Source of the DNA: Fistulifera solaris
Taxonomy: Eukaryota
DNA: 64,000 bases
NCBI GenBank assembly: GCA_030295235.1
Contig: AP026176.1
Location: 1 to 64,000, forward strand
Direction of reading: 5' to 3'
In this document: positions 7,862 to 44,636 of the stretch, piece after piece
Numbering within the stretch: the stretch's first letter is position 1
How the letters are laid out: each line of letters starts with the position of its first letter
Notes under the pieces: generated by a model
Databases searched by the model: none
What the model was told of the DNA's origin: nothing
Seen by the model: the letters and a program-made list of their open reading frames with translations, nothing else
Translations under genes and position numbers: made by a program

Positions 7862-10469
7862 ATGTGCACAACAACTACAGTGCTACTTGCTTATCTGCTT
7901 TTGCTCGTAGCGGAGCCTTCTGGCGCTTTAGTTCATTCGAGATCGAGATTCAAAGGGCCAACCTTCTCCACTAGATCTAATCTTTCCAGATTCACGACAG
8001 CACAAGCAGCAGTTGCAAATGATAGAGAGACTTACGCAGAAGAATTAAAGCGAAAAGCTGCTGAGATACGACTTGAGGCGGAAAGCATGGATATAAAATT
8101 GACTTTAGAAAAGATTGCGTCGTTAGAGCGAAAAATTGCGGCGAATAAACAACAACATGAAATTGAAGAAATGCAAAGGCAACTGGAAGCTTTAAAGGGA
8201 GGCGACTAAACGGCGAGTCAAGCGTTAAGACGATTGCGACTGAAAAGACGGTGAAAAGAGTGAAATTGATTCAACAGACACTGCTCGACCATCAACTTCG
8301 ACACCCTCATTAAATGATTATATAACTCGTTCTTCGGCCATGACGTACGAAGATATGCTGAAAGAATGTCCCATTGCTGGTTTTGACGAGGAAGATCTTG
8401 CCCTTTACATTCCCGTGTGTCAGCGACTGGAGGAACAGATGCCAAATGCGACCGACGTTACTTTAATGACGGTCTTTCGACAGGAACAATCCTTACAAAA
8501 GCATTTTCAAGAAAAGGTTACCAAAATGATTGCGGAACCACTGGAGGACTTGCAGAAAATGGAGTCATTACGCAGTCAGTATCTGCAATCGACGAGCCGG
8601 CTTGAGAAAGATCAGCTAAAGCGAGAAATGAATGCACTGGAACGAAAACAGCAATCGATGATGGCGGGTAGTGATGGTGTCTTTTGAACCTCCCTCCTCT
8701 CACTCCAGAACGACTGAAGGAACGTTTGGATGCTATAGAAGCTCTGCCACGCACACTCAGAGCCGTTTACATGAGTAGGACTGGGTCTTTGAATACAACA
8801 ATGGCGATTTACTTGGACTATTATGACGCTCAGCTACAGTTACTTGAACAAGTTCCTCAAGTTGAAGGGATTGATCCTATGGAAGTCCGCCGTACCGTCG
8901 AGACATTACCATATGCACTACAAGAATATATAGCTGAAAAGGGAGGAGTAGCGGATGGATGGAATATTGATCTGTTGGTTGAAAATTGATGGAGAAAGAT
9001 GAGGACGAGCAACAGCCAGCGAATCAGTGGGCAAGGGTCCAAAATGGCGGTTTTTCCGTGACAGTCGAGCGTGGTGATACAACGGACATTGATTATCTTG
9101 ATCGATCCCGTTACGTTTCCGAGTTGTACCCAGCTCTGGCACGGATGCCGAGCCCTTCTCAAACCGAAGTGGAAGGAATACTGCAACGATTGGCGCCACT
9201 TTTATGGTTCGGTCAAAGCCAGAGAGAGTTGTTGGTGGCTATTATTTGCGCGGGGAAAACATGATTTCGGATGACGACAATGGGCTGAAGCTCAGCGAAA
9301 AATTGCAAGAGGTGTTTCGTGACACCAACATGCAATGTTTTACATCCAAGATCCGTCGCCTGTCAGTGACGAAAACTTCGAAATGGGTTATCAATATGAA
9401 TCGGTAATATTTGTCACATCCGGGAATTCTTCCGATTTATACCGTAGCGCCGGAACCGTTGAAAAGGTTGCGCTTGCCACTCTCTGTATTCATGGTATGG
9501 GTCTTTGCAGTCGCGGGCTGTGAAATGCAGCCAATTTTGAGCGAACGGATAGACCAGACACTCAGCGAAGTGAATGTTAACACTGCTGATTTATCGTGGC
9601 TTCTCAATATTCTCAATCCGACCATCATGTCCATGTTTACCATTTATTTATCTCACGAGCTTGGTCATAAGCTCATCGGTTGGAAGGACAACGTAAGTAC
9701 AGCAATAAGATTGATTGTGGTTGGAAATTACCGACAAAACTATTATCTTAGCCATCACTACAGTTTCAGGTTGGTCTGCCATCTCCAATCCCGTCTATCC
9801 AGCTGGGTATCTTGTCTTCGATTACACCTATCAAATCGCCTCCTCCCACGCTAAGATCAATGTTCGACTTCGCTATTGCGGGCCCTTTTTGGGCTGCTGG
9901 CGTCGTTTGCGTTTTCATAACTGGACTAACGATAACATCGTCGTCCGCCGATCTTTCTTTATTTCCAGCAGTGCCGGTTTACATGCTAAAGGCCAGTGCT
10001 GTATGCGGGGTCTGACAGAATTTTATTTGGGGAATGGAATTCTCGAGGTAGGGCCAACCTTGCCTCTTCATCCATATGCCATTAGCGGCGCCGTTGGGAT
10101 TCTTGCCAATGCTTTGGCGTTGTTGCCATTAGGACGTAAGTACAACGTATTCTTTTATCAATACATAAATGAGAATGATCTCACATCTCTGGCTTGCAGA
10201 AACGGATGGTGGACGCATCGCTCTAAGCATGTTTGGTAGACGAGGGCGTTCGTTATCAAGTCGTTCGCTGCGTTGCTCATCTGCTTATCCGGACTTGTAG
10301 GACTCGACAACTCACATATCCAATTGACGTATTTGTTGTTTGCAATTATTTGGCAAAGAGAACTGGAAACTCCAGCGCGGAACGAAGTTGCCGAAATAGA
10401 TGTTGCTAGAGGGCATGCGGGATTGCGATGGCTTTGCTAGTGTCCATGATTCTGCTTCCAGCTCAGTAA
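7862..10469 (+). CDS. EGY-like site-2 (M50) membrane metalloprotease, probably plastid-targeted; introns and frameshifts
   Basis: Signal peptide; SHELGH (HExxH); FDFAIAGP; LHPYAISG; NALALLPLG-intron-TDGGR; C-terminal PARNEV. Confidence 0.85.
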
Positions 10470-33525: not shown

Positions 33526-36500
33526 ATGAAATTCACATTCTACGTCGTTGAAGCACTCTCCGTCGTTAGTGCTGTGAGTGCATTTCATTCGTCGCTTTCA
33601 GTCAATCCCCACCATGCAAGACGACAGGCTTCTATTGTTACTCAACGTCAAATGATAGGAGGAAACTCGTATCTCGATTCTTTGCAATCTCCAAAAGATA
33701 ACGATGACCAACAGGAAAGCAGCAACAGCAGGAAAGAATACAGCAATTATCAGGATCCCTCTAGAGATCCGACGATTTTGAAAATTCGTCCTGAAGAGAC
33801 TTCGCCCATGTCAGCCGATCATACTCATTCACAAGATGAGCTTGCGTCGACAAACGTTCTAGCCGAGCTGGAGCAGGAAACGGAAATGAATCTTTTCATG
33901 AAACATCGATCGAGAAATTGCGACAACAATTTAAACCAATTATGGTCGGTGCTGAGAAAGAAGGAAGGGGATGACCACGACCATGATGAGTACCCCGCCG
34001 CCGTCATTCAACAACAACAACAATAATACCAATGGACCTCGCAATCCTCGATCGTTTGGTGGGGGCAACAATGGACCTAGTCGAAATAATAATGGACCGC
34101 CGCCGAATTGGGAACCGAGAGGAAACGCCAGTCCTTCTACGAATAACAATAGCAACAACAATGGACCGCCGCCGGGTTGGGAACCACGAGGCGGACCATC
34201 GCGAAATTTGAACAATGGTCCTCCGCCCGATGCACGACGACCCGATAACGTTGGTAATAATGGTATGCAGGGTGGCTGGAATCCAGAAGCAGGGCCCAAA
34301 GAGGAAGAGGTGGATCCTATGGCAGCCTATTTAGCAGCCGTAGGGCAAATGAAGCCTCCCTCAGCACCGGATACTCGTCGCAATGAAGGACCATTAACGA
34401 ATAATAATGCAAATTCACCGCGTGCTATGCAACCGCAAGGTATGCAAACTCCTCCTCCGCCTTCAATTCGAAACAATAACAATGATGGCCCTCCTCGTTC
34501 CTTCACTTCGTCGCCGCCGAATAATATGTCGGAATCTGGTCGACGACCCATGGAAATGCCACCGGCTCGAAATGACGCGCCTCCTCGTTCCTTCTCTGCT
34601 CCACAATCCAACAATGTACAAGCACGGCCCATGGAAATGCCACCAGCTCGTAACGATGGTCCACCACGTTCCTTCTCTTCGCCTCCGCCACCCGATACGA
34701 GTCGTAGGCCGATGGAAAGGCCCCGGCACGAAATGACGGCCCGCCTCGTTCTTTCTCCGCTCCACCAACAAATAATATGCCTGAATCAGCTCGAAGACCC
34801 ATGGAAATGCCTCCAGCTCGCAACGTTTCTCCGCCTCCAACAAACAACAATATGCCACCGCCCGACGCGACTCTACGGTCGATGGAAATGCCTCAATCAC
34901 GCAATATGCCGCCAGCATCGACTGGAAGGCCCACGGAGGCACGAAATGATGTTCAACCTCGCTCGTTCCCCCAGACACCTTCGGATACAGCGACTCGACG
35001 ACCCATGGAGATGCCACCGGCTCGAAGAGAAAGCTCAGCGAATCCCCATCTACTCCAGCAAGCTTCACACCACGACCTCCGACGGACAAGCCATTCTTTG
35101 CGACGGACAAGCTCGATATGCAAATTGACAATGCGGTTTCCAATGCAATGAATGCCGCTATGGGGGCCGATGGACGAAACAATTTGGATAAAAGCAACAA
35201 CTTGATTGAGAAAAGGCATTTTCTCAGGAGAGTTTGCTACAAGAAATAAAGGAGTCGAAGGAAAAGCTGTCTGGAGAATGGAATGATTTGATGAAATCCT
35301 TCGCAGAACCGTTTACATCTATTCTGCCAGCTCCAAAGCAATTTGAGCGGCCTCCCCACAAAGTATCAGGTCAAGGGCATGACGGAACGTATTATGAAAC
35401 GCATACCGGCTGAGCGACAAGCCTCGGGTGCTGGAGGTTCTTCTTCGTGGGAGGCTTTTCAACGAGCGGAAAAATTATGGACGCAGCTGAAGGAATTTCA
35501 GCCATTCACGTATGACGCGAAGTACATGGGAAGACCGGACCGTAATGGTAATCCTCCACCGCAAATGTTTGTTTACCAAGATATTGCCATGGGAAATCCA
35601 GCTTGTTGGTTGAAATTGCGGGAGCAGTATGGAAAAGAGCTTGATTTTGATGTTGTCGTATGTGGTGGGACGCTAGGTATTTTTTTCGCTACTGCATTAC
35701 AACTTCAAGGCCACAATGTATGTGTCGTAGAAGCAGGTGAATTGCGCGGGAGAGAACAGGAGTGGAACTTGAGCTTCGACGAGCTTTATGAACTTGTAGA
35801 AATGGGTGTTTTGACGGAACAAGATATTGATGACGCTATTCAGACTGACTTCCCTGGATGCCGATCTGGATTCAAGAACAAAGAAGTTACACCTTTGGAA
35901 GGAGGCTACATGGACAATCGGGTGGGGTTTGAGTGTTTTACGGAAGATGTGCTGAACCTCGGGGTTGCTCCGACCATATTGCTGCAACGCGCAGCCAAGA
36001 CATTTGTTAATAATGGCGGTGTCATTAAGGAGCGTACCCGTATGTCTGGAGTTGCCATCTCAGAACTGATTGGTGCGGCCGTAGATATTGGGGAAGATAA
36101 GGAGCCCATTACCGCTCGGTTGATTATCGATTGTATGGGAAACGGAAGCCCCATATCCAGACAACAACGTCACGGGCAGAAGCCGGATGGCGTGTGTGTC
36201 GTTGTTGGGTCCTGCGCGTCAGGATATGATGCGAAGACGAACGTGATCGGCGATTTAATCTACACGAATCAGGTTATTGCTGATAAGGGTCAAAATGGTA
36301 GACAGCAGTACTTTTGGGAAGCCTTCCCAGTCGGTATCGGTCGTAATGGCAAACAACCTGGAACAAGCGATGTAAAGACGACGTATATGTTCACTTACTT
36401 GGATGCTGATTCAACTAGACCCTCGTTGGAGTCTATCATGGAAGATTATTGGTCGTTGCTCCCTATTTATCAACCTTCGATTCAAAATCCCGACGAAGAC

Positions 36501-37181
36501 CTCGACTTTAAGAGAGTATTATTCGCTTACTTCCCGACATATCGCGACTCGCCCCTCAAACCTCAATGGAACCGCATTCTCGCCGTTGGGGACGCGTCAG
36601 AATACAAAAGTCCACTCAGTTTCGGTGGGTTCGGTGCGCTGACAAGACATCTTTCTCGAATCACCGGGGCTGTTAGTGAAGCTCTCGAGCTGGATTTGCT
36701 TCACAAAGATGACCTAGGTGCCATTAATCCGTACACACCAAATCTAAGTGCAACGTGGATGTTTCAAAAAGCGATGTCGGTCAAGCCTGGCCAGAAGACC
36801 GACGCCGATTTTGTCAATCGCCTTTTGGCAGTCAACTTCGAAGTTATGAATCAAATGGGAAAGCGGACCATTAAACCATTCCTACAGGATGTCGTGCGAT
36901 TTGATGGTTTGGTGAGCTCTCTTGGAAGATGTTTTATTGCTGATCCGACATTTATGCCCAAAATTGTTGCACACGTAGGTCTACCACAGCTCGTTGATTG
37001 GGTCGGCCATGTTTCGATGATGGGATTGTATACTGCTCTCCACAACGTTGGAACTCCCATTGTTAAACCTGTTGTACGAAAGTACGTCAAGGATGAACGG
37101 CAGCAATATTTGTGGAGACGCCGGATGGAAGCATGGGAATATGGCAGCGGAAGTGACTACGAGTTGCCCAAGGAGAATTAG
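33526..37181 (+). CDS. cruP: CruP/CruA-family FAD-dependent protein with plastid presequence and long Pro/Asn-rich repeat N-terminus (joined across frameshifts)
   Basis: DVVVCGGTLGIFFATALQ...LRGREQEWNLS, QYFWEAFP, TYMFTYLD and SPLSFGGFG are CruP/CruA-type motifs; N-terminus VSA-F; the join to the upstream ORFs is inferred. Confidence 0.75.
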
Positions 37182-37311: not shown

Positions 37312-39293
37312 TTATTGGTAGTTGATGGTGATGTTGTCAAATCCCCGAGCTAAAGTCATTTTCCACATTCGGTCGACTTGCTCTTGGTCAATGTCGCCAA
37401 CTTCGTGTGTCTCTCGTCCTTCAACCGTATTTAACAAGCAACCAAAATGACATGGGACAATATGGTTTTCATCCGTGCTCATGCATACGTCGTAGGGTCC
37501 TTTTAAAAAGGGGTTGTTTGGTCCGGTCTTGAGCAACCCAATGCGAATGTGTTGCACGTTCTCCGGTCGCTGATTTATAGCGGCGACTGGCATAGCAGGG
37601 ACCGTGTAGTCTAGCACGTAACGCGTGCGAATCGATTCTTGCCTTTCAGGGCTTTCGAATACATTGAATTGGATAGAATCTTTCCGACCAGCACAACCTT
37701 GTAGTCTGCCATTTCACTCAAGTCGGTGGAATACGAAATGTTGGGATGCTCCAGCACCACATTGCGAGAGAAAATTCGAATCTTCAGTTTAGGATTGTCT
37801 TTCACTAACTTCTCACACACGGCCGTTCCAATCTTTCCACCCGCGCCAATGTAGTAAAACTCTTGTAGGTTAGGAATATCCATCATCTGATTGTAAACCG
37901 AAGCCACTGTCATGGTATCGCCCGTCCAGATCTTAATGTTCTTGTCTTTGAGGTACTCATCGTTCTCTACTAATTTCACCATCTCCAACCCTCCATCATT
38001 GAGTTGCTTCATTTTATTCAGATTACCGAGACCAAAATACCTCGTTCCGTGTTTTTGGTGTTCCTTGCGCATCAGCTTGATCATGTCTTGGTTGATTGCA
38101 TCATAGCTCTCCGGAGTCATGTAATCGACCGGAGTACGAAGCAGACAAATGATTCGACCTACGTATTCATTGGCGATGCAGAATCGTGAGCAGTAGTAGA
38201 ACTGACTGAACAAGCCGGTGATGTGTCGAATGGCGTGCATAATGAGGAACTCAAGTCGTAGCGGGAGATAGATTTTGTATTGGCTGTAGGCATTGTAGAT
38301 ATTGAGTTCGGGAATGGTAAGGAAGTGCCCGAGTCCACCATTGTGCCCAATAAAGACGAAATCTTGCTGATTGGCGGGCAACATGGCCGGAAGCGGCTTT
38401 TCGTAATGACGAGCGGTCCCAAAGATATAGTCCCAAATCGGCATAAAGAGCGCATAATTAGCATTGAAATAGGCATGATGCCCCAAATGAAATTCGGGCG
38501 TGTAGAAGAGATACTTCAAAGGCGAGTACTTGTGTGTGAAGATAGGATTTCTCACTCGCACATTCGTGTGTCCCCACATATTAATGACATCAAAGGACAC
38601 GAGATACACTCCAATGGCCACCCAGTGCTGTCGTCCTTGCAACAAGAAGGGTGCAAAGAACGCCGGACCGAACGTCGCGACATACACAAAGTGCTCGTGA
38701 AAGTTTTGCACCAACGACGTGGTGGGCAAGGTCCGAATCGAAAGATGATGAAAACCGTGCATCTTCTTCATGATTTCGGGGACATGCAACCACCGATGCA
38801 CAAAGTAGTACGCCGGTTCGATGAACACAACGTGCGCTAGCATCGTTTCCTTGATACAAGAAGTAATGACGGAAGCATCGGAAAAGAACATGGAAGGAAA
38901 GATGACTTGCAAAGCGACTTGCGTGTACATGTGCAAGATAAAGGCCGTCAAATACTCATCTTTCTCACGTTGTAACTGCTTTTGTGTCAACTTGTTCATG
39001 TAGTTGTCTTTATCGACGAGTTGGTAATGCAGCGACAAGACAATATGCGTCACCAAGATGCGTGTAATTGCAATCGCATAAATCGACCAAATCGGAGTGA
39101 CTTTGTAGAAGAGCAAAGGTCCCAAGAAAATCAGCCAATCCCATTCTGTGTTGCGTTTGTGATCTGAGTGCGTCGGAGCTAATGATTTTGCGGTTTCGAC
39201 GCTGACTTCTACGGAAGAAGAAGACGCCGTAGAAGACGTTGAGGCAGTCGAAGAAGTCGAACTTTTCTTTTTCACTTCAGGTCGTTGACACAT
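37312..39293 (-). CDS. CER1/CER3-type fatty-acid-hydroxylase plus WAX2-C protein; one frameshift near 37620
   Basis: YYFVHRWLH, HGFHH, YTPEFHLGHH, NYALFMPIWDYIFGT, GLGNLNK...LNDGG, GDTMTVA, GAGGKIG, PCHFG...EG..THEVGDID...VD.MW. Confidence 0.9.
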
Positions 39294-40520: not shown

Positions 40521-42269
40521 TCATTGCAAGAATAATCGAGAAGACAAATTTTCTGGAATCCGGTTGCTGAAACGTACACAGATATCGTCGTTATCATCGG
40601 TAGTGCTCACATCGCAAAACTCGTTGAATCCGTCAAAGCACCAGTCTTGGTCGGCCAAACGGATCAATAAGATCACAAAACACCCAATAGTGGCGAACGC
40701 AATGATCGCTGCCAGAATCAGAATCAGTAAGCTAGTGCGGCCTGTTCTCTTGACATAGGCGTCAATTTTACTTTTGCCGAATAGTGCACCAGCGAGGCAC
40801 ACGAAAAAGTAAAATACTGCATAACCTGTCGGCACGATCCCCGAGATAATGTACATGACGGCTACACTACTGCTCGTCATCATAACCATGGTAGCGTTTG
40901 TGGCAGTCGAGACGCTAGGATGAACACCCTTGACCAACATGAGAGGGCCCAATATGCTGGCACCGCCAATACCAATCAAACCACCCACCGCGCCGGACAT
41001 GAACGACGAAATACCGTAAAACCAAAGTAATGATTGGTCCCATGCCGTATCGCCGTTCAGGAAAGGATACTGCACGGATTTTCGCGCTATTTGGGCGGGG
41101 ATCAGCTTCGAACCGTAGTACGCCGCGAAGCTGAAAAGCCACACAAATTGTGCTGCAATCAAGACAGAATACCACGTAGATTGACAATCGATACCTATCA
41201 CAGACTCGAATTCTCTGCCACCAATCATTAAGTTCAATACGAACAGACCGCACCAGAAGGTGCATACCGCAGCAATCTTTTCGAGAGGATATTGTCTCAT
41301 ATCGTGTTCGAGAAAAGCAATTCGATTTTCCAAGTGGGAGTCTTTTAGAACTTTTGTGTTGGTTTCAACACTTTCTGTTATAATTGTAAGCGAGCAATGA
41401 AGTGCGTCATTCTTTCCTTCGCATTCGACATTTTGCGTTTGTGTTTGTGGTGTATCATCGTCGCTTTTCTCTTGCTGTCGTCCGTTCACTGTTGCCAGTT
41501 CATTTTCTCGTGCTTTTACTTCCTTGGCTGCACTGGATTTGTATTTACCATATGTCATGTATGCCATCATGGCCAATAATACTCCTGCTGTCATCAAATA
41601 GAGCCAGTTCGGCAACAGCTTTTGTATGAGAACACCGAGAACGGCTCCAGCGACTTGCAGCGGTGACGTAAATAGGAACATGTCGTAATCAATCACAGGG
41701 CGTGTGTAAAAGACACCACCACGTTCTAAATATTCCTTTTCTTCTCGTTCACTCTTCAACTCGACTTGCATGGGTCGTACTTCTCCTACGCCTGGATCAT
41801 GACGGATCTTCTCTTGAGGATGACGACTGCGTGTGTTCAAAATGAGTCCACCGATGCAGGCGCCAAAGATACTCGCTTGCGAAAGCCCAGCCGCTGGTTT
41901 GGGTGCAAATTGCAAGATGATGATACCTAGGGGAACATAGACTCCTCCACCTCCGACACCACACGATACAGCGATCCCCGCCGTAATGAACCAAATGATG
42001 GCACCGACAATATCGTTCCACCAAAAATGATAGTGACTGTGCTCATCATCATTCCCCAAGTTGAATAGCCGTCGATCGAAACAGGTATGATGTTTCATAT
42101 CCGTTTGTAAGAAACCGTTGCATTTTAAACAGTCCTTCACTTGTATCGTTGTGGTGCCATCGCAAACAGGGCACGCGTAGGAACCGCTACTACATTGACT
42201 TGACAGGCCCAGAACGGCTGTTATTGAGATGACAAAGCAGAGAAGCCGCGTAAATTCAAGTTGTCGCAT
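40521..42269 (-). CDS. TauE/SafE (TSUP) family membrane transporter with Cys-rich N-terminal domain
   Basis: Intact 582-aa ORF; AVSCGVGGGGVYVP, PVIDYD, GLIGIGGASILGPLML and GVHPSVSTAT. Confidence 0.88.
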   Translation of the reverse strand: MRQLEFTRLLCFVISITAVLGLSSQCSSGSYACPVCDGTTTIQVKDCLKCNGFLQTDMKHHTCFDRRLFNLGNDDEHSHYHFWWNDIVGAIIWFITAGIAVSCGVGGGGVYVPLGIIILQFAPKPAAGLSQASIFGACIGGLILNTRSRHPQEKIRHDPGVGEVRPMQVELKSEREEKEYLERGGVFYTRPVIDYDMFLFTSPLQVAGAVLGVLIQKLLPNWLYLMTAGVLLAMMAYMTYGKYKSSAAKEVKARENELATVNGRQQEKSDDDTPQTQTQNVECEGKNDALHCSLTIITESVETNTKVLKDSHLENRIAFLEHDMRQYPLEKIAAVCTFWCGLFVLNLMIGGREFESVIGIDCQSTWYSVLIAAQFVWLFSFAAYYGSKLIPAQIARKSVQYPFLNGDTAWDQSLLWFYGISSFMSGAVGGLIGIGGASILGPLMLVKGVHPSVSTATNATMVMMTSSSVAVMYIISGIVPTGYAVFYFFVCLAGALFGKSKIDAYVKRTGRTSLLILILAAIIAFATIGCFVILLIRLADQDWCFDGFNEFCDVSTTDDNDDICVRFSNRIPENLSSRLFLQ

Positions 42270-42982
42270 AATGATAATTAAACTTGCAAGCGAAATGAAA
42301 ATATATGAGCTCGTTTCGCAAAAGCGGTGTCAATAAGTCAAATCGAAAATGGGATTGATTTTCTCGTTCGAGAAACTCTTTTTAAAAAAGATAATGCTTC
42401 TTTTTCGTTCAAGCAATCTGCTGCGCGCCGTCTTCGTCAACTTCATACCAAGTTACTCCAATAATGATCGCTTCAAGTTATTTATTATTATTCATTAACG
42501 GTCTTAGAAGAAATAGATTAAGACGTGAAAGAAGAATGGCAAAAGGCTTTTATTTTAGACAGTAAATGCTGGTGTCATCATGGTCGTTCAAAATATTTCC
42601 GAACACTCGTCTCCGCGCGTGATGATGAGAAGAAACTCCGACGACCTCGTTTTGTTGATGACGTGTCAATGTCGCAGAGGATGACGTCCGCCACTTATGA
42701 CTGTGGCTTTAATTGTGGGCACCACGTGGTTCAGTAACGGTTTCTCGTGATTGATTGAAACCACCGTTTTCATAACTTTGCGTGTCATCACGGAATGATA
42801 AAACGGTTTCGCAACAACGCTAAGGTGCGCCGATGTTGCAACCACTACGTACAGAGCTCGTCTCTAGAAACGGCTTAGTAAGGTTTATACTAGTTGATAA
42901 AGCAATTTCCCGGCCGCTTTCCTATTTGATCGTTCCAGAAAACAGATACGATTGCGACAGCACGACAAACATAGTATTTAAT

Positions 42983-44636
42983 TTACATGAATCGAAGTTG
43001 ATCCTCAGCAGTCGAACAATAGTCCACTTCGGCTTCTGCACTGACCGTGCAGAATGGTTTGAAACCATCGAAGCACCATTCTTGATTTGCCAAGCTGGAT
43101 AAAGCAATCGACAAGCACCCGACCGTAGAGCAAGTAATAATACCACATAAAATCAATATGAGCAAGCTCGCCCGACCTGTGCGCTTGACGTAGGCATCAA
43201 TCTTGCTCTTTCCAAACAAGGCACCCACTACGCACACGCAAAAGTAAAAGATCGCGTAACTCTTGGGGACCATTCCCGAGATCACATACATTAGTGCAAT
43301 GTTACTGCTCGTGAATACGACCATCGAAGCAGTGGTTGCCGTAGACACGCTCGGATGAATACCGGTAATCATGAGCACAGGACCCAGAACAAGCGCACCA
43401 CCAACCCCTATGAGACCACCAATGGCTCCACCAAAGAAGGCGAAGCCTCCATAAAAGTACATCCAGGAGTAACTCCACACAACATCGTCGTGTAAGAAGG
43501 GATAATTGACAGCCTTGCGCGCATTGTACGATCTCATCAACTTGAAACCATAAAATATTGCAAAGCTAAACAGCCACACAAATTGACAGGCTACGAGAAT
43601 GTTGTAGGCGGAAGACTCGCAGTCAAGTCCTATGACCGACTCCATTCCTCTTCCACCAATCATCAAATTCAAGACAATCAAGCCGGACCATAACGCAAAC
43701 GCCGCAGCGATACTTTCGAGTGGATATTGTCGCATGTCTTCTTTCAGAAACTCAATGCGGGCTTCCAAATGAGGATCGTCCTGCTGAGTAGCACTTTTCT
43801 GAACGGATTGAATGATTTCGTTGGGATCTGAATCCGGGGTAGCATCATCCTCCACCTGCTCGGCCTGTTCCATGCGTTTCGCCTTTTCTTTCGCTGCAGT
43901 ACTTCTGTATTTGCCAAACGTCAAATAACAGACCATAATCAGTAATCCTGCAGCCGTCAACAAATAAAGCCAGTTGGGCAAAAGCTTCTGAATCATCACA
44001 CCCAACACCGCTCCAGCAATTTGCAGAGGCAACATGAAAAGTCCCATGCTGTAATTGATTACTGGACGCGTATAAAAGATACCACCGCGATCTAAATATT
44101 CCTGTTCTTCTCGTTTGCTCTTTAATTCGACTTGGAGGCTGAATTTCTCCGACACCAGGATCATGACGAATTTTCGTTTCCGGATGAAAATTCTTGCAAT
44201 TCAAAATATATCCACCGACACATGCACCAAAAATACTAGCCTGTGAAAGTCCGGAGGCCGGTTTGGGAGCAAATTGCAGTACAATCATCCCCATGGGAAC
44301 GTAAACACTTCCACCTCCGACACCACAGGAAATCGCAATACCGGCTGTAATAAACCAAATTACCGCGCCTACAATATCATTCCACCAATAATGATAATGA
44401 CTATCATCTTTGCGTTTCGCTCCGATATTGAATAGACGACGATTGAAGCATTTATCGTGCATCAAATCGGATTGTAGAAAGCCATCGCACTCTAGACAAT
44501 CCTCGACTTGAATGGTGACGGTTCCGTCACACACTGGACACGCAAAAGAGTCCCCACTAGGGCATTGCCCGGTAAAGGCGTGCACCACAGATGCCAAGCC
44601 GACTAATGAAAGTGATACGAGTGATATAAAACGCAT
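42983..44636 (-). CDS. Tandem paralog TauE/SafE (TSUP) transporter; one frameshift near 44140
   Basis: High visible identity to 40521-42269 (AISCGVGGG.VYVP, QFAPKPA.GLSQASIFGA, GKSKIDAYVKRTGR). Confidence 0.88.

Follow-up and report, generated by a model that had tools for sequence, protein, structure and literature searches.

A stretch of 64,000 nucleotides of Fistulifera solaris DNA (positions 1 to 64,000 of contig AP026176.1, assembly GCA_030295235.1; called the window below) carries on its minus strand a gene that probably encodes an intact, membrane-bound, two-domain hydrocarbon synthase of the CER1/CER3 kind, that is, a single chain comparable to algal CER1/3. An earlier note, made from the letters of this DNA, had named the motifs HRWLH, HGFHH, HLGHH, GAGGKIG, PCHFG and THEVGDID as lying in one gene. 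We located all of them on the minus strand, and a single gene of CER1/CER3 architecture with both signature sets (the His boxes on the one hand, the nucleotide-binding motif and the Cys on the other) was confirmed. The features are as follows.

37312..39293, minus strand: whole coding sequence of the diatom CER1/3-type protein, 660 residues with one missing base restored
39144..39293, minus strand: Ser/Thr-rich hydrophilic N-terminus, residues 1-50, mean hydropathy -0.93
38415..38840, minus strand: fatty acid hydroxylase (predicted di-iron membrane oxygenase) domain, PF04116, residues 152-293
38784-38798, minus strand: His box 1, HRWLH, residues 166-170 (motif search)
38745-38759, minus strand: His box 2, HGFHH, residues 179-183 (motif search)
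38475-38489, minus strand: His box 3, HLGHH, residues 269-273 (motif search)
37315..38363, minus strand: predicted AAR-like (WAX2 / CER1-like_C) thioester reductase domain at the C-terminus, residues 311-660, spanning the frame break
37827-37847, minus strand: nucleotide-binding motif GAGGKIG, residues 483-489 (motif search)
37636..37637, minus strand: frame-break site; aag-aaa-tcg has lost one A, which leaves two bases for a codon of the relatives
37450..37452, minus strand: candidate catalytic Cys615 of the intact protein, inside PCHFG (37441-37455)
37387-37410, minus strand: THEVGDID motif

The gene and its first domain

The closest database protein, P0003, is 98% identical and has 723 residues. 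Open reading frames, and tblastn with P0003 and a second relative, P0004, put the gene on the minus strand, from a start ATG (39291-39293) to a TAA stop (37312-37314). The first frame comprises 560 codons from the ATG to a stop at 37611-37613. The second, offset by one base, extends from about 37650 to the TAA and encodes 112 residues. Both relatives aligned as two collinear pieces, in frames -3 and -2.

The fatty acid hydroxylase profile PF04116 matched the first frame with E 6e-19 and 69.2 bits (cut-off 31), over profile positions 2-132 of 132. The N-terminus opens with the family-wide MC (M64 invariant and C65 nearly so; P0003 numbering is used for all alignment positions). The first 63 residues of P0003 are unsupported here because of stops in the upstream frame of the window. 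At the other end of the protein, the Glu of THEVGDID is invariant throughout the family (E694). A scan of NCBIfam returned no family at E 0.1, which sets the protein apart from the equivalog of cyanobacterial acyl-ACP reductase (AAR).

The reading frame is most likely intact

The window reads aag-aa-tcg where P0003 has K-K-S; around the site P0003 reads ...KALKGK-K-SIRTRYVLDYTVP... The two tblastn pieces lie end to end, with only the bases aa at 37636-37637 between them. As these two bases stand in place of one codon of the relatives, one A is missing. The earlier note had put a frameshift near 37620; a frameshift is indeed present in the window, but its position is 37636-37637.

The break was checked on Logan contigs from four public runs. 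In one of these (X1), which covers 0.87 of the sampled words of the window, contigs had one extra base behind 37635, accounting for 48.2 of 48.2 depth and including both forms of the gene described below. In a second run (X2), a metagenome, both contigs had one extra base, behind 37635 or 37641. The break of the window was thus reproduced in none of the four contigs, from two runs, that cross the site. Since all four carry the extra base, the gene is most likely intact, with AAGAAATCG at the break site as the intact reading, and the frame break is almost certainly a sequence or assembly error at a short run of A. Restoring the base, as the earlier note had proposed, gives the frame of 660 residues.

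Two other accounts of the break were weighed. The gene could be a pseudogene in this strain, with a real one-base deletion truncating the protein before the catalytic Cys. The window itself has the break and the stop at 37611-37613, as such a pseudogene would; we nevertheless consider it very unlikely, given the extra base in the four contigs, the lack of further stops or indels across 660 codons, the 95% identity of the second frame to P0003, and the location in a short A run, which we take as a typical spot for assembly or sequencing errors. Still more improbable, to the point that we give it hardly any weight, is that the two frames are separate genes or that the C-terminal frame lies outside the transcript. 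The frame break alone speaks for it. The 120 listed relatives (of 242) are all single proteins of 592-723 residues, several of them from transcriptome assemblies, which match 90-100% of the 560-residue frame and are long enough to hold the C-terminal part as well; six relatives that were retrieved in full run on through the PCH[FA]G Cys motif; and the tblastn pieces abut within 2 bases. Full-length two-domain orthologues occur in MMETSP and eukprot transcriptome rows, and the break is absent from the independent contigs. We conclude that the gene is most likely intact and that its C-terminal segment is part of the same protein.

An intron in place of the frameshift was rejected, since the tblastn pieces abut within 2 bases, the relatives have exactly one codon there, and the contigs placed over the gene showed no joint. 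The gene accordingly has no intron.

In the X1 run, window positions 37743-38423 occur in two gene forms of similar depth. One of these is identical to the window and the other has 65 differences in 681 bases; they may be divergent alleles, homeologues or strains.

The C-terminal domain resembles AAR

An AlphaFold model was made from a 24-sequence alignment headed by P0003 (mean pLDDT 69). Values were mostly 80-95 in the C-terminal 350 residues and 40-90 in the membrane domain. Residues 374-723 of the model superposed on the reductase AAR (6jzq_A) with Z 25.5 and a root-mean-square deviation of 3.4, 303 of 340 residues being aligned; unrelated Rossmann proteins had Z of about 10. Foldseek against AAR gave E 4.6e-10 and a target-normalised TM of 0.69, and a 52-sequence family profile matched the AAR sequence with E 2e-13. 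Sequence searches of solved structures with the single protein and with the diatom-only profile gave no match even at E 10. In the model, the C-terminal 350 residues fold like AAR.

The family Cys falls on the Cys of AAR in ...FACFAEA...; this is C294, which is replaced by S in 6jzz, the C294S entry. The GATSKIG consensus of the family (GAGGKIG in the present protein) falls on the AAR loop GATGDIG. Kojima et al. (2024, PMC11020225) identify C294 as the residue responsible for catalysis in AAR, and the Cys that superposes on it in CER3 as probably catalytic.

AAR (PDB 6JZQ, 6JZU) and residues 311-660 therefore have in common the whole fold as modelled, the position of Cys294 and the nucleotide-binding loop. 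AAR differs in being a soluble, stand-alone protein whose substrate is acyl-ACP. The overall logic of AAR together with its partner, the aldehyde-deformylating oxygenase ADO, is alike, from thioester to aldehyde to a Cn-1 hydrocarbon. ADO, however, is a soluble ferritin-like di-iron enzyme that is unrelated to the membrane His-box domain. The AAR-like reductase fold was also found in TAD of the carmabin pathway (PDB 9E4S, 9E4U) and in the AAR-like part of the aminotransferase 4PPM (Foldseek E 3.5e-10, Z 23.5); by its title, entry 9E56 has a Cys bound to dephospho-CoA. The carmabin domain differs in that it is part of a cyanobacterial assembly line and has no His-box oxygenase domain.

A family of single-chain proteins in diatoms

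With the first frame as query, a homologue search gave 242 proteins at E <= 0.001, of which 120 were listed. These 120, with identities of 56-98%, include orthologues from both pennate and centric diatoms, transcriptome records among them. The presence of the latter indicates that other diatoms express both domains as a single protein. Mayamaea, Seminavis (annotated 'WAX2 C-terminal domain'), Epithemia, Fistulifera, Chaetoceros tenuissimus, Trieres and Ditylum are named among them, and one MMETSP record belongs to taxid 265537, Entomoneis paludosa. Every organism name on the close relatives listed is thus that of a diatom, in agreement with the diatom source that the earlier note had thought probable.

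In the 24-sequence diatom alignment the His boxes are invariant, as are G546, G549, K550 and G552, and the Cys is conserved in at least 90% of the sequences.

One member inside the pennate clade, P0124 (715 residues), has degenerate His boxes 1 and 2 (NRLLC, KESHQ) and has kept GAGGKVG and PCHFG. The copy may be decaying, or it may have become specialised towards a CER3-like role through loss, in parallel with land plants. Another diatom record, P0312 (MMETSP0017, taxid 2856, Cylindrotheca closterium), is a canonical-type CER1/3 with ACHAG and GATSKLG that groups near the plant CER1 and CER3 clades. Either some diatoms have a second gene of green type, or the record is a contaminant.

Relation to CER1, CER3 and canonical CER1/3

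A profile of the 24 diatom sequences, searched against 1.84 billion representatives, gave 637 matches at E <= 0.001, in three tiers. After the diatom type came six proteins from AT-rich sequences (P0125, P0126 and P0128-P0131; 552-647 residues, 430-570 bits), and then many proteins of 600-800 residues, with up to 222 bits, aligned over nearly the whole profile. For example, the canonical two-domain protein P0144 matched profile positions 139-654 with E 7.8e-61. Names in the third tier include 'Very-long-chain aldehyde decarbonylase CER3' (Sesamum) and 'Aldehyde oxygenase (deformylating)' (Sphagnum), as well as Selaginella, Alexandrium, Symbiodinium and one Cylindrotheca closterium transcriptome record. 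When P0144 and P0287 were used as queries in homologue searches, the named matches came from dinoflagellates, plants and one diatom transcriptome, and none from Ostreococcus. The nearest ESM Atlas clusters are named 'aldehyde oxygenase (deformylating)' and 'ECERIFERUM 1-like' (0.96).

Motifs were compared in an alignment of 104 sequences, made up of a sample of 20 of the 120 diatom matches, all representatives of at least 540 residues, and all matches of at least 560 residues from the first of the two canonical homologue searches. The His boxes are kept in 21 of 21 diatom-type rows, the paralogue P0124 being counted apart. The Cys is present in 20 of the 21, and the remaining row is gapped there. 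All six AT-rich relatives have all the motifs. The Cys of the diatom PCHFG aligns with ACHAG of CER3-type rows, and GAGGKIG with GATSKLG of plant CER3-type rows, while HRWLH, HGFHH and HLGHH align with motifs of plant CER1-type and CER3-type rows alike. Three plant CER1-type rows are without the Cys, reading MSAW (P0177, P0268) or MSTS (P0244). In a second alignment of 52 family sequences, from which CER1-type rows were excluded, the Cys is invariant (52/52), as is G546; H229, H233, H242, H245, H246, H332, H335, H336 and G552 are at least 90% conserved.

The phylogeny with CER1 and CER3 that the earlier note had proposed was run on 73 of the 104 rows (IQ-TREE in quick mode, LG+G4, SH-aLRT support only, unrooted). 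Eleven partial or aberrant rows were dropped (P0192, P0220, P0200, P0242, P0175, P0286, P0291, P0331, P0332, P0075 and P0245), diatom rows were thinned to 10, and 9 near-duplicates of the dinoflagellate-type group were removed. The tree and the alignments were made without the characterised Ostreococcus, Klebsormidium and Proteomonas proteins. Diatom-type and AT-rich rows form one clade, separated by its branch from everything else, plant and dinoflagellate sequences included. Within the remaining, canonical side there is one clade of plant CER1-type rows and another of plant CER3-type rows. The shared architecture is therefore borne out, but the diatom type is a separate deep clade rather than one nested among the canonical sequences. 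As the tree has no root and several rows have odd composition, we limit the claim to a separate deep clade and make none about relative age.

On the canonical side, P0149, P0188 and P0316 form one clade of two-domain proteins with cytochrome b5 or b5-like tails. A C-terminal PF00173 domain was precomputed in P0188 and P0316, and the tail of P0149 was read by eye (HPGGE). Such tails are consistent with a role of cytochrome b5 in supplying electrons to the His-box domain.

Comparison with known hydrocarbon-forming systems

Of 99 green algal genomes, 20 have a single CER1/3 gene, and so do two cryptophytes (Baca-Porcel et al., New Phytol 2026, PMC13326499). According to this paper, CER1/3 and FAP are mutually exclusive in green algae, knockout of CER1/3 in Ostreococcus abolishes the C21:6 alkene, and yeast with algal CER1/3 proteins forms hydrocarbons, the activity of the Ostreococcus protein being lost on mutation of its His motifs, its Cys or its NADPH site. 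It also states that the His motifs of plant CER3 are dispensable. In the parts of the article available, diatoms are brought in only for the old record of C21:6. That two-domain proteins occur in diatoms is mentioned in a 2026 review (PMC13510223), which cites Chaudhary et al.

A main hydrocarbon of diatoms, all-Z-heneicosa-3,6,9,12,15,18-hexaene, derives from docosahexaenoic acid, DHA (PMC4483651). The diatom C21:6 has been known since about 1970 (Blumer et al. 1970 and Lee & Loeblich 1971, via PMC4483651 and PMC13326499). Moulin et al. (preprint 10.1101/2020.06.23.166330) found no FAP in Thalassiosira pseudonana. Our full-text literature searches found no paper that tests a diatom member or assigns an enzyme to the diatom C21:6.

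The algal CER1/3 proteins (OtCER1/3 of Ostreococcus tauri and four others) also have three His motifs, a putative NADPH site and a putative catalytic Cys, and the C21:6 lost on knockout of OtCER1/3 is a hydrocarbon also typical of diatoms. The diatom family differs from them in forming a separate deep clade (21-27% identity to the canonical-side sequences obtained), in its NADPH motif, GAGGKIG or GANGKIG in place of the canonical GATSK[IL]G, and in marks of its own, a conserved MC start and a PTHS...RNT stretch. In land plants both partners, CER3 and CER1, have the two-domain fold of the diatom protein, but the activities are divided between these paralogues, which act as a heterodimer, whereas the diatom chain keeps both sets. 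The products of the plant pair are C25-C35 surface wax alkanes. The counterpart of the diatom PCHFG Cys in CER3-type proteins is AtCER3 C587, which corresponds to AAR C294. FAP (fatty acid photodecarboxylase) also produces Cn-1 hydrocarbons from fatty acids in algae; it differs in being an unrelated flavoenzyme of the plastid that requires light and acts on free fatty acids.

Proposed function and its alternative

We propose that Cys615 of the AAR-like C-terminal domain would receive the substrate, a fatty acyl thioester that is probably acyl-CoA. A hydride from NAD(P)H, held at GAGGKIG, would then reduce it to the fatty aldehyde, from which the His-box di-iron domain would strip the carbonyl carbon, leaving a hydrocarbon one carbon shorter. 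Electrons for the di-iron domain would probably arrive via cytochrome b5, which is said from work in Arabidopsis to be the electron supplier. The most likely product in diatoms would be the C21:6 alkene, made from docosahexaenoyl-CoA, an assignment that we put forward tentatively. As the N-terminus is hydrophilic and has no hydrophobic, signal-peptide-like start in its 50 residues, the protein sequence suggests a location in the endoplasmic reticulum rather than in the plastid.

Several observations weigh against a hydrocarbon synthase of this kind. The window as given carries the frameshift. The CER1-like_C profile PF12076 scored the 112-residue second frame alone at E 5e-6 and 26.7 bits, just below the cut-off of 28.3, and this profile is on record for just 17 of the 120 listed relatives; homology to canonical members is nonetheless shown by the profile matches across both domains and by the AAR fold in common. 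The N-terminal domain was modelled with middling confidence and had no match among solved structures; since one domain fills the structure match lists, the missing match is uninformative on the N-terminal fold. In the 52-sequence alignment the diatom protein is 21-27% identical to members that are not of the diatom type, and the diatom-type and AT-rich clade (SH-aLRT 100) is set apart by a branch of 0.88 substitutions per column. With such identities and so long a branch, the substrate or the chemistry may differ. Finally, stramenopiles have a further route, since brown algae, in which no CER1/3 was found, make a C21:6 isomer in a way given as unknown (Cabanel et al. 2026, PMC13521276).

An enzyme of the same architecture could accordingly have a different job: release of the aldehyde or an alcohol pathway, hydroxylation or desaturation of lipids, or action on C16-C18 chains rather than DHA. 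The superfamily of FA_hydroxylase is broad enough for this, as it includes hydroxylases, desaturases and decarbonylases. The deep separate clade with its low identity to canonical members, and the C21:6 of brown algae formed without CER1/3, point the same way, and algal CER1/3 proteins vary in their substrate specificities in yeast (PMC13326499). On the other hand, the residue classes needed in OtCER1/3 and in the AtCER1/AtCER3 pair for hydrocarbon formation (His boxes, NADPH site and Cys) are all kept, a fused reductase is sensible only if its aldehyde is passed on, and the architecture has no other known function. We therefore regard a different job as unlikely, and a single-chain hydrocarbon synthase as the probable function.

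The earlier note had proposed a bifunctional acyl-CoA-to-alk(e)ane enzyme. Its architecture and both signature sets are supported; as the diatom family lies outside the canonical sequences, we infer its function by transfer from homologues. Moreover, the concept of a bifunctional single chain is already published for green algae (2026), and the diatom gene adds a member. After the 2026 work on Ostreococcus, specialists would not be surprised. Diatoms are major marine producers, and this gene family is a direct candidate for their C21:6 enzyme. If the proposal is true, the single-chain CER1/3 mechanism would reach beyond the green lineage and cryptophytes, an enzyme for polyunsaturated hydrocarbons that is independent of light would be at hand, and the diatom case would inform whether CER1/3 and FAP substitute for each other outside green algae.

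Relatives outside diatoms and on virus-like contigs

The nearest non-diatom relative in the tree, sister to the diatom clade, is P0125 (L019, 7926-9716; also L029). Its surroundings are those of a compact cellular eukaryotic genome, with genes for the flagellar assembly factor DNAAF5, DnaJ, RNA 3'-phosphate cyclase and a class IV aminotransferase. This gene content suggests that the host is a flagellated relative of diatoms.

The relative P0129 is encoded letter for letter at 7953-9707 of locus L001, on a 98-kb contig (shared with L038) that is labelled as a giant-virus metagenome-assembled genome and has a GC content of 0.25. Its neighbours are an intein-bearing Pox_A32-type ATPase, an AAA ATPase and a ubiquitin-conjugating enzyme. 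Contig scans with P0126, P0125, P0128 and P0131 as single queries retrieved no viral contig; the alignment query alone retrieved L001.

Locus L020, on a 54-kb contig with a GC content of about 0.20, and its relative L072 are densely coded, with PhoH and MutS present. At 6751-13421 of L020, a FAD_binding_6 oxidoreductase, the CER1/3-like protein, a cytochrome-b5-fused fatty acid desaturase, two small open reading frames and an ABC1 kinase follow one another on one strand. This run of genes resembles a lipid module that provides its own electrons. By size and position, the open reading frames of L072 (6741-8978) have the same order up to the CER1/3-like gene, where the contig ends. Two more AT-rich copies are at L009 (157-4196), where the CER1/3-like gene lies between PCNA and ABC1 kinase genes, and at L006 (737-8360), which encodes P0131 and where it is near DOT1-like and acyltransferase genes; a patatin-like frame at L006 had a weak Pfam match (24.0 bits against a cut-off of 27.7). 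Judging from composition, gene density and gene content, L020, L072 and L009 appear to be viral. The copies on L001, L020, L072, L009 and L006 all keep the His boxes, GGTGKIG and the Cys.

A wider proposal is that diatoms, a flagellate lineage and giant viruses hold a distinct old clade of single-chain synthases, which would make the diatom C21:6 from DHA and, in its viral copies, turn polyunsaturated fatty acids of the host into hydrocarbons in the course of infection. In this full extent we consider it rather doubtful. Our literature searches found no paper on viral CER1/3-like copies.

Genomic surroundings in the window

The window is eukaryotic in content, with WD40/PUL, protein kinase, adenylate cyclase and TauE genes in long open frames. 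The flanking open reading frames (35295-37181, the TauE genes and one other) had no match in any of 85 loci of relatives. We saw no indication that diatoms keep the gene in a conserved cluster. An open reading frame of 628 residues at 35295-37181 on the plus strand stands tail to tail with the CER1/3-type gene, 131 bases away; it had a weak match to FAD-dependent oxidoreductases (DAO), with E 5.6e-5, below the cut-off. On the other side, the frames at 40521-42329 and 42983-44200, both on the minus strand, each match the TauE/SafE sulfite exporter family, one in the second half of the profile and the other in the first half. These two may be exons of one gene or tandem genes.

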